From an uncultured Chlamydiae bacterium (lineage in GTDB: Bacteria > Chlamydiota > Chlamydiia > Chlamydiales > SM23-39), in contig CAVSSM010000002.1 of the NCBI GenBank assembly GCA_963730605.1, positions 128,001 to 192,000 of the forward strand: DNA of 64,000 bases, in the 5' to 3' direction. Within the stretch, counting starts at the first letter, position 1, and every line of letters begins with the position of its first letter. Below the pieces are notes generated by a model, which did not search any database, was not told the DNA's origin, and saw nothing but the letters and a program-made list of their open reading frames with translations. Of the stretch, positions 57,894-60,800 are shown one piece after another. Made by a program: the position numbers and the translations under genes.

Positions 57894-60800
57894 ATGAAAA
57901 AAACTCACGATACTACGACCTCCTTTTTAGAAGAGGCGAAGGCGTTGCCGGCAAGCAGAAAAGGCGGCGGCGGCGCGAAAGAAACGGCTCATACCGTCGT
58001 CAAACGGAATGGTACCCTTGTCCCTTTCAGGCGAGAGCGGATTTACCGCGCGATCGAAGCTGCGTTCCGCGATATGAAAAACGTCCCAGCGCCGGCTCTC
58101 TTCGATTCGGAAGTTCAGCAAAAGATCGAACAAGTCACCGACATCGTAGTCAAACAAGTCCTCCACCTCGCATCCAAAGGGGCTTCCTTGACAGTCGAAG
58201 GGATCCAAGATGTGGTGGAAGTGACCTTGATGAAAAACGGCTGCCACGATGTCGCGCGCGACTACATCATTTACCGAGACAACCGGAAAGCGAGCCGAGA
58301 AGGGTCGGCTCTGCAAACTGAAAATCTACCGCAGAGACAAGACCGACCCCCGCCCGTTTCAATCCGATGAAGATCGCCTCTTCGATCGAGCGGGCTTTCC
58401 GCAGGGCCAGGCAAATCGAAGAGCAAACGCCCGACGAAGTAGTCGGAGCCGTCAATATTTTGACCAAGAAGATCGTCGGCCGAAATGTGCGGATCTCGCA
58501 GCGAAAGGCGATGTCCTTTACATCGATATGATCGAAGACCGGATCGAGCGGGAACTGATGATCGGAAAAATACTTCGACGTTGCGAAGAATTATATCCTG
58601 TATCGGGCTGAAAAAGAGAAACGGCAAGCAACGCTCACGGCTCTTTCTCACCGTCGATGAAAACGCCCCCGTCCGCCGGTTCGAGATCGCGACTGACAGC
58701 GGCAAAATCACCATCAATGAGAAGATGCTCCGCAGCAAACTCGCCTTCGCTTGCAGAGGGCTAGACAAAACTAGTCTCGATCGAAGAGCTTCTCGAAACG
58801 AGCGTCACCCAATTTTACAGCGGCATGAAAGAGACACGAAGTCGACTTGGCCAATATTTTCGCTGCTAAATCAAAAATCGAGAAAGAGCCTGCCTATTCG
58901 CAGTCGCCGCAAGGCTCCTTCTCGATGTTCTTTACCGGGAAACCATGGGCCTTCCCGCTTCCGATGCAACGCTCCAGAAAGCGCACCGCCAGTATTTCAA
59001 GAAATATATAAAAGCAGGCATTTCGTTAGAGCGCATCTCCCCCAAGCTGCTCGATTTCGATCTTGACGAACTGGGGATGGCGATGGATCTTTCCCGGGAC
59101 GATCTTTTCAGTTATCTCGGCCTGCAGACGCTCTACGACCGTTATTTCATCCACAGCGAGTCACCGAAGGCTCGAAACCCCGCAAATTTTCTGGATGCGG
59201 GTGGCCATGGGCCTTGCCCTCAACGAAGGGGAGCAGAAAAACAAACGGGCGATCGAGTTCTACAATGTCCTTTCCGAATTCTATTTCACCTCGAGCACCC
59301 CGACGCTCTTCAATTCGGGCACGCCCCATTCGCAGCTCAGCTCCTGCTATCTTTCGACCGTCATGGACGACCTCCATCATATCTTCAAAGTCATTGCCGA
59401 CGATGCGCAGCTCTCCAAATGGGCGGGCGGCATCGGCAACGATTGGACGAACGTCAGGGCCACAGGCGCCCGGATCAAAGGGACAAACGGCACGTCGCAA
59501 GGCGTCATCCCATTCCTCAAAGTCGCAAACGACACGGCCGTAGCAGTGAATCAATGTTTTGATCCGGATACGAGGATTTTTACCGCACAAGGGGTTCTGC
59601 CGATCTCGAATGTGGACATTGGCGATCTCGTTCTCGGCGTCAGCGGCACGTACCGAGAAGTTACAGACCGGTTTATCTATAATCAAAAAGATCCGATGAT
59701 CGCCATCGAAATCAAACACTCTTTAGACCCAGTTCGTGTCACCACAGCCCACCCCTTCTATGCGATCCAGGGCGTGCCGATGGAACAGGCCAACTCGAGG
59801 ACGATGGAATGGCTGGCCAAAGGCAAAATCCGGACGGGTTGGATCGAAGCAAGCCAACTTCAACCGGGCGATTATGTCGCGCAGGTTATTCCCAAAGAAG
59901 TGACCGTAGTCCCTGAATTGATAGAAGATGATGCTCGGCTTTATGGAATCCTGCTCGGCGATGGACACCTCTCGAAAGAAGGGATGCCGTGGGGCGTATC
60001 CGGCAATCCGCAAAATGACGGACATCTAGAATTCGTCAGAAAATATCTGAGAGACCGGGGCATCCATTTTTGGGAAACGGGACGAGGCGAAACCTATCTC
60101 CAAATTCATTGGGCATCGGGGCGAGGGGCCGTCCAAGACGGGGCGACAGGCCGCTTTATTTCGGCCGGAGCGCCTACGCTTCCCTTTGAACACGACGATT
60201 TGTATGACGAAACCAAATGCAAGCGGATCGCGCCACGGTTCGCCCATCTGCCCAAGCCGCAAGCTCTTGCCATGCTCCAGGGGTTATTGGAAACAGATGG
60301 AAATGTTTCCCGCGGCAAGGAACTGACCTTTAGCAATACCTCGCTACAGCTTATTGAAGGGATCCGCTACCAGGCTCTTCGCTTCGGCATTCCTACAGTC
60401 GGAAACCGCCGCGTAAGAAAAAACGACCATATAGCCCATAGGTCCGACGGGTCGGTTGCTGAGTTTAAAGGAGAGACGACTTCTTATGATCTCCGCATCC
60501 CCGCTTTTGCGGAACTTGCCGAAAAAGTCGGCTGCAAACCCATCCATAAACACAACTGGCTCACGACCGAGGGTTTCGTCTGGAGCCGCGTAACCTCGAT
60601 CAAAAACGTCCCCGAGACTGCTTTTGTCTCTGATCTTGTGGTCGATGGCGACAAGTCTTACATGACGACCGCGGGACTTGCCCATAACGGCGGTAAGCGT
60701 AAAGGCGCAATGTGCGCATACTTAGAGACTTGGCACCTCGACATCGAGGAATTTCTCGAACTGCGCAAGAATACGGGCGACGAGAGGCGCCGCACGCACG

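Follow-up and report, generated by a model that had tools for sequence, protein, structure and literature searches.

The nrdA gene of an uncultured Chlamydiae bacterium, encoding the large subunit of a class I RNR, carries in its loop 2 an in-frame intein that is followed by glycine and not by Cys, Ser or Thr, and among close homologs of this intein glycine at the +1 position is a family trait. Comparison of the sequences suggests that the intein probably splices without a side-chain nucleophile at +1, by a direct aminolysis that would be efficient or at least dominant over cleavage.

Anatomy of the Insert and the +1 Residue

In the window, by which we mean the whole stretch of 64,000 nucleotides that was analyzed, the insert is read through without a stop codon (Table 1). 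Its translation starts with CFD, ends with AHN and contains TTAH at residues 63-66, LYGILLGDG at 129, LQGLLETDG at 241 and the block F Asp360; AVAVNQ stands before it, and GGC GGT AAG CGT (GGKRKGA) after it. Among the Pfam families LAGLIDADG_3 scored above its cut-off and the Hint families, including Intein_splicing, only below theirs, while NCBIfam, including its intein models, gave no match inside the insert. The endonuclease is predicted from a match to PF14528 (E 9e-10) and from fold matches to I-DmoI. An AlphaFold model of the intein built on a 71-row alignment reached a pLDDT of 88.8 (only 33 when folded from the single sequence), and its top structural matches were the inteins PI-SceI, TliVMA and PI-PfuI. 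A preliminary description of this DNA had called the insert a homing-endonuclease intein extending from 59555 to 60691. The Hint blocks, the two LAGLIDADG helices with their catalytic acids and the modeled intein fold agree with this assignment, the endonuclease being a prediction; the start was placed correctly, whereas the end included the Gly+1 codon and has to be moved back to 60688.

Table 1. Positions of nrdA, its intein and nrdB in the window.
Feature	Position	Strand	Remarks
nrdA, class I RNR large subunit	57894..62252	+	chlamydial/Pseudomonas type with N-terminal ATP cone; Pfam ATP-cone, Ribonuc_red_lgN, lgC
End of N-extein (...AVNQ)	59543..59554	+	Gln-1 is the loop 2 Gln
Intein	59555..60688	+	1134 bp, 378 aa, in frame; from translation
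N-terminal Hint (splicing) region	59555..59890	+	about residues 1-112; Cys1, Thr63, His66 (block B)
Tandem LAGLIDADG homing endonuclease (predicted)	59927..60559	+	about residues 125-335; Asp136 and Asp248 present
C-terminal Hint region	60572..60688	+	about residues 340-378; Asp360 (F4), His377, Asn378
Gly+1 codon GGC	60689..60691	+	first C-extein residue, without side-chain nucleophile
Start of C-extein (GGKRKGA)	60689..60709	+	Arg+4 corresponds to the phosphate-binding Arg of loop 2
nrdB, RNR small subunit, intact	62263..63363	+	PF00268; Phe in place of the usual radical Tyr (EAIHTHAF)

The claim that Gly+1 is the native residue is borne out by empty alleles in 14 related genomes (loci L012-L025), which read AVNQGGKRKGA or a close variant. 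Likewise, contigs of two other runs gave the same Gly codon at 60689-60691, not AGC or TGC: X3 record 20 spans the C-junction from 60472 to 60729 without any difference, and X5 record 26 spans it from 60610 to 60999 with a single difference, at 60877. These independent contigs, the homologs and the usage of Gly codons over many loci rule out a sequencing error at +1. An RNA intron at the insert was also rejected, since Rfam gave no match at an E value of up to 1 in 57500-63500, and no ribozyme core of a group I or II intron was found.

Host Gene and Assembly Quality

A frameshift-aware alignment with the intact, 90%-identical neighbor P0002, which itself passes the cut-offs of NCBIfam NF009029 and NF005544, revealed about 11 frameshifts in the nrdA of the window as assembled, all of them outside the intein. 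They are single-base indels, mostly extra bases, and cluster in 58317-59161; independent contigs lack five of them, the remaining six lie outside aligned contig coverage, and we consider them likely to be assembly errors. Since these indels suggest an error-prone assembly, caution is advised with other broken genes in the window, and because the gene is frameshifted as assembled our argument rests on relatives with intact nrdA frames (1415-1498 aa). The term essential, which the preliminary description applied to this NrdA, is therefore appropriate for relatives with intact genes but not for the window's own copy as assembled. In the source genome, which is 83% complete, one nrdA and one nrdB were found, nrdA being the only RNR large subunit. 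Among the matches listed, the named homologs nearest to the host belong to Simkaniaceae, Rhabdochlamydiaceae and other Chlamydiota. The Phe at the radical Tyr position of the window's nrdB we take to be a mark of the chlamydial class Ic. Elsewhere in the window, two tandem paralogous short ORFs (63424-63960, minus strand), both starting with MRKALMI, probably encode small secreted proteins, and a 549-aa ORF (50585-52234, minus strand) has internal repeats with PAPTQTV..PATPK and RRWSESDLL blocks.

Insertion Site in RNR Loop 2 and Need for the NrdA Product

Alignment with loop 2 of the P. aeruginosa, human and E. coli enzymes agrees with the earlier placement of the insertion in RNR loop 2. The residue before the intein corresponds to Gln442 of P. 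aeruginosa NrdA (5im3), to Gln308 of the tagged human chain 5d1y and to E. coli Gln294, and Arg+4 corresponds to E. coli Arg298; Gln-1 is invariant in all 71 rows of alignment A1. According to the available text of PMC4728125, loop 2 joins the specificity site to the active site, is flexible, lies at the surface and becomes ordered upon binding of effector and substrate, and in E. coli Gln294 and Arg298 are key residues, the Arg298Ala enzyme being nearly inactive and the backbone carbonyl of Gln294 contacting and reading dGTP. In yeast, the available part of PMC2896522 describes Q288A and R293A as relying on a second RNR gene and Q288E as not viable. A nick between Gln and Gly would leave a carboxylate on the loop 2 Gln and introduce two charges at a point where the effector is read by groups of the backbone.

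A second RNR that might back up an inactive NrdA, a possibility raised in the preliminary description, was sought in genomes that are kin to each other and in part incomplete, and was rejected. In 14 of 15 genomes, three of them assembled as one contig, PF02867 gave no locus apart from the gene with the intein (in one case this gene extends over two contigs); NrdD was found in none of 10 genomes, and a monomeric class II RNR above the cut-off in none of five. The remaining genome, G002, has a second nrdA 3' fragment (L078, on contig G002:C7), followed by nrdB, at a contig end, which may represent a strain duplicate or a contamination.

Distribution of the Intein and Its +1 Residue

A first homolog search returned 887 proteins at E values of up to 1e-20, and the junctions were tabulated for the 120 listed, the window's own included. 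All 120 end in HN/GGKR (the slash marks the junction), and 119 start with VNQ/C, the one exception being truncated. A second search with a Thiothrix query returned 960 proteins, of which 108 new ones, cluster members included, were checked; 106 have the intein with the same two junctions, and the other two are short fragments without it. The NrdA proteins of Azotobacter vinelandii, A. chroococcum and A. beijerinckii carry the Gly+1 intein as well (residues 443-820, HN/GGKR), with 61% identity for the cluster representative. The preliminary description had mentioned a similar RNR entry from Azotobacter; the sequence of A. vinelandii NrdA supports this as regards the element itself, while the name of the database entry, presumably the InBase name 'Avin RIR1 BIL', was found in no paper.

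When 50%-identity representatives were considered, the best 150 of 1014 were examined and 71 gave both junctions at the loop 2 site, 54 with Gly+1 and 17 with Ser+1; the others among these 150 are fragments, have broken ends or carry inteins at other sites. The tabulation of +1 residues called for in the preliminary description therefore gave Gly throughout the close homologs and Gly or Ser in more distant relatives of viral type. Similarly, 54 of 79 viral loci, many of them labeled as giant-virus MAGs, could be parsed whole, and 45 of these have Gly+1 and nine Ser+1. In the Chlamydiota, intein matches occur in 42 of 300 genomes that are at least 90% complete, two of the matches being weak. 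A pattern scan of GTDB gave only one locus, and GenBank phages gave only distant inteins (21-29%). All of these homolog counts overstate independence, since the homologs are related and many are near-copies. Several RNR large subunits (P0260, P0174, P0191, P0203, P0242) contain two or three inteins, a Gly+1 or Ser+1 intein in loop 2 standing beside canonical ones at the active-site cysteines, and four long proteins (P0246, P0258, P0261, P0270), distant matches only, have four to six inteins in what appear to be iron-sulfur enzyme motifs.

All four Gly codons are used at +1 over 43 loci (GGC 16, GGT 12, GGA 10, GGG 5). The codon is one base away from Ser or Cys in 28 of the 43, and no such switch was seen among close homologs; in the other 15 (GGA or GGG) no single change leads to Ser, Cys or Thr.

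Retention of Splicing Residues

Cys1, Thr63, His66, Asp360, His377 and Asn378 are each present in 119 of 119 close homologs, and the endonuclease residues Asp136 and Asp248 each in 117. A set of 67 diverse Gly+1 rows includes members with as little as about 30% identity; among these rows Cys1 is found in 66 (the remaining one has Ser), Thr63 in 58, His66 in 67, Asp360 in 66, His377 in 65 and Asn378 in 67. A catalytic residue specific for Gly was sought by comparing these 67 rows with the Ser+1 members; no position marks the Gly+1 members, and the catalytic set is the same in both. Accordingly, the intein itself offers no explanation of how the thioester would escape hydrolysis. In some Gly+1 copies (P0167, P0169, P0208, P0256, L103, L119, L128) the first residue is Ser, or Thr, Lys or Met precedes the terminal Asn.

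The chlamydial set comprised 43 loci with whole inteins from 41 genomes, with two further loci frameshifted inside the intein. An active-site acid of the endonuclease is lost in 10 of the 43 copies, and nine of these 10 keep all five splicing residues. In genome G024, a shortened copy of 296 aa (L071) has Arg in place of His66, and no other RNR large subunit was found there. Likewise, all six Gly+1 mini-inteins (148-179 aa) keep Cys1, TxxH, the F4 Asp and His-Asn; one of them resides in the RNR P0260, which also has two canonical inteins. A survey of 82 viral loci around one split form gave 17 split Gly+1 inteins, five contiguous ones, three C-halves only, 55 empty sites and two unparsed loci. 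The 17 split forms, many near-identical and representing a handful of lineages, keep the splicing residues, and at some of these loci the halves lie in different frames or are separated by about 0.9 kb of extra DNA. The C-halves of split Gly+1 inteins in viral contigs (L120, 3042-3660; L158-L176) are acidic, with net charges of -3 to -14.

Mobility and History

On a tree of 56 extein rows, of which 41 have the intein and 15 are empty (a sample favoring carriers), presence of the intein required 12 changes, five of them forced by starred branches; this number is no lower than in shuffles (117 of 500 were as low) and does not tell gain from loss. In the intein tree, copies from other families cluster with the intein of the window. 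The patchy presence fits repeated homing and loss, without separating the two. Three further comparisons concerned the +1 residue: one unrooted tree of 84 rows, from which P0197 and P0167 were left out, and two rooted trees of the Hint part only, the second without 23 rows. In all three the Ser+1 inteins form two groups among Gly+1 rows, with an unresolved base. AU tests did not reject a single Gly+1 clade (p 0.952 and p 0.347); in the test with p 0.952 the constrained tree exceeded the quick free tree by 69.6 lnL. An ancestral Gly+1, our first reading, was dropped because of the unresolved base and because these tests accept one Gly+1 clade.

Class Assignment and Known Systems

The element has the marks of class 1 inteins, namely an in-frame insertion in a conserved motif with empty alleles, a Hint fold with blocks A, B, F and G, and Cys1 and a terminal Asn, but it is not filed there because its +1 residue is Gly and not Cys, Ser or Thr. 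Class 2 is characterized by Ala1 and a directly attacking Cys+1, in place of which Cys1 and Gly+1 are found here, and class 3 by Cys at F4 without an N-terminal nucleophile, whereas F4 is Asp in 66 of 67 rows and Cys1 is present. With the type A bacterial intein-like (BIL) domains it shares Cys1 and a terminal His-Asn without a +1 nucleophile. However, according to the available parts of PMC7765530 and PMC2814812 those domains occur in variable regions of non-conserved proteins, and they mostly cleave, while the present element has two LAGLIDADG helices with catalytic acids and sits in the conserved loop 2 of an essential enzyme. It is thus a true intein by site, fold and marks of mobility, which belongs neither to classes 1, 2 and 3, by its +1 and F4 residues, nor to the BILs, by its location.

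PI-SceI (the Sce VMA intein), TliVMA and PI-PfuI have the same Hint and tandem LAGLIDADG fold with Cys1, Thr B7, His B10, Asp F4 and His-Asn, and class 1 LAGLIDADG inteins are likewise inserted in conserved active-site motifs, with empty alleles in relatives. The sequence identity of these three with the window's intein is only 12-15%, and since Cys, Ser or Thr is lacking at +1 here, the branched intermediate at block G cannot form. The RNR alpha intein of CroV (YP_003970087), whose ends are identical to those of match P0235, belongs to the same family and occupies the same site (YVNQ before and xGRRKG after the intein); it is marked InBase in a table of Green et al. 2018 (PMC5784728, supplement file 3) and has Ser+1, so that canonical splicing is possible there, unlike in the window's Gly+1 intein. 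The NrdA inteins of A. vinelandii and A. chroococcum (HN/GGKRKG) and Pandoravirus RNR intein 1 share both the site and Gly+1. In the available text of the Azotobacter genome paper (PMC4465626), the NrdA intein is mentioned as spanning residues 442-800 and its +1 residue draws no comment, and Pandoravirus inteins with C-exteins starting GGGKRKG are tabulated by Green et al. 2018 (PMC5784728, supplement file 3), in whose main text neither Gly nor glycine occurs.

Inteins insert before C, S or T according to a portion of Swithers et al. (PMC2814812), and all three intein classes go through a branched intermediate at +1 according to the available text of PMC4031507. No account of a Gly+1 RNR intein appears in the available portions of PMC7765530, PMC4853749, PMC7664689, bioRxiv 2025.01.02.630785, PMC3159444, PMC10710043 and PMC2677866, or in the searched part of the supplement of PMC4760082, and a literature search whose coverage excluded most subscription papers, so that a prior mention is possible, returned no experimental study of it. 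The Gly+1 RNR intein is therefore widespread and catalogued in places, but apparently unremarked as to its +1 residue, which may be explained by curated intein profiles missing it.

Proposed Ligation by the Glycine Amine and Its Alternatives

In class 1 splicing, steps 1 and 3 use Cys1, His B10, Asp F4 and the terminal Asn, while steps 2 and 4 need the +1 side chain (PMC4031507, available text); the residues for steps 1 and 3 are all present here, but the side chain for steps 2 and 4 is absent. For type A BILs, section 8 of the same review gives as the proposed ligation an attack of an amine on the thioester after Asn cyclization, and this route fits the anatomy of the intein exactly. By analogy, Cys1 would take up the N-extein as a thioester, Asn378 would cyclize and free the amino group of Gly+1, and the freed amine would attack the thioester directly, restoring the Gln-Gly bond. 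The folded RNR barrel, built by both exteins, may hold the unhindered Gly-Gly amine beside the thioester and supply the effective concentration that it needs, and the endonuclease would home into empty alleles. Ligation is supported by the Gly+1 rule in bacterial and viral homologs, by the retention of splicing residues at both intein ends, also in mini-inteins and where endonuclease acids are lost, by the host's need for what is the only RNR large subunit in nearly all of the genomes compared, by the position of the cut between the key loop 2 residues Gln and Arg, and by the proposed BIL precedent.

The same conserved residues would, however, also serve a double cleavage, in which hydrolysis or thiolysis of the thioester and Asn cyclization release the intein without ligation and the two NrdA pieces remain folded together as a nicked but active enzyme. 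Several points count for this reading and against ligation. In type A BILs cleavage predominates, and one of them spliced only after its +1 residue had been changed to Cys (PMC4031507, available text); no intein residue is specific to the Gly+1 members; loop 2 is a flexible surface loop; and the conserved GGKR may reflect requirements of RNR that hold in a nicked enzyme as well. Moreover, the split NrdA (mobE) of phage Aeh1, an RNR large subunit in two pieces, can be fully active. Yet Aeh1, which has no intein, needed added tails for this (PMC3045599, in the part available), and no extra residues flank the loop 2 intein. A nick would also separate Gln-1 from Arg+4 in loop 2, with the two charges described above. 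Fractured genes with split inteins, in which a further gene separates the halves (Dassa et al., 2009), are similar to the split Gly+1 loci, but the published split NrdA inteins adjoin the thiyl-radical Cys and not loop 2 (PMC2677866, available text). An intein capable only of cutting would bring little benefit to a gene that is split anyway, so that the full catalytic set of the split copies counts for ligation, although the split halves could help in assembly and be cleaved off afterwards. The absence of a switch to Ser or Cys in close homologs, despite the one-base distance at most loci and the tolerance of Ser at the loop 2 site in other RNRs, likewise favors ligation, and we regard double cleavage, the main rival, as unlikely. 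An inefficient ligation giving a minor spliced fraction beside nicked enzyme, possibly tuned by the thiol state or by an effector ordering loop 2, would match the mixed behavior of BILs (PMC4031507, in part) and the ordering of loop 2 by effector and substrate (PMC4728125, in part), but poor splicing should select for the same unobserved one-base change, which makes such a mixture improbable.

An acyl group might instead be carried by another side chain of the intein or extein, as by Cys F4 in class 3 inteins. Thr6, Thr10, Thr371 and Tyr369 are well conserved and many bacterial hosts have Cys at +9; on the other hand F4 is Asp, Ser+1 members have the same conserved Thr and Tyr, viral-type hosts lack Cys at +9 and a relay would still have to finish with an amine attack, so that we consider this reading highly improbable. 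That the insert is never removed, that the gene is dead or that the junction is restored in the RNA, by an intron or by editing, is least credible of all. The frameshifted nrdA of the window and the lack of His66 in L071 speak for it. L071, with no other large subunit found in its genome, and the second nrdA 3' fragment of G002 also count against ligation. In contrast, relatives have intact frames, catalytic residues persist without the endonuclease, Rfam gave no match, the GGA and GGG codons lie beyond a single change to Ser, Cys or Thr, and five of the frameshifts are absent from independent contigs. Between aminolysis and cleavage, the comparative evidence leans to ligation.

Significance

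In its widest form, to which we give an even chance, our reading would make these elements a fourth mechanistic class of true inteins, old and mobile, that occurs in contiguous, mini and split form among bacteria and large DNA viruses and splices efficiently by the Gly amine with the folded host enzyme as template; the split members would then be natural Gln-Gly ligases. If this is true, protein engineering would gain further options from a ligase that generates a Gln-Gly junction. Gly+1 and Ser+1 inteins occur as natural pairs at one site, there are mini-inteins and split inteins, and one carrier, Azotobacter vinelandii, can be cultivated, so that the question lends itself to direct testing. 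In summary, a widespread family departs from the rule of Cys, Ser or Thr at +1 inside enzymes that their hosts appear unable to do without, and either outcome would be new, be it a true intein that splices efficiently without a +1 nucleophile or an RNR that remains functional although its specificity loop is nicked.
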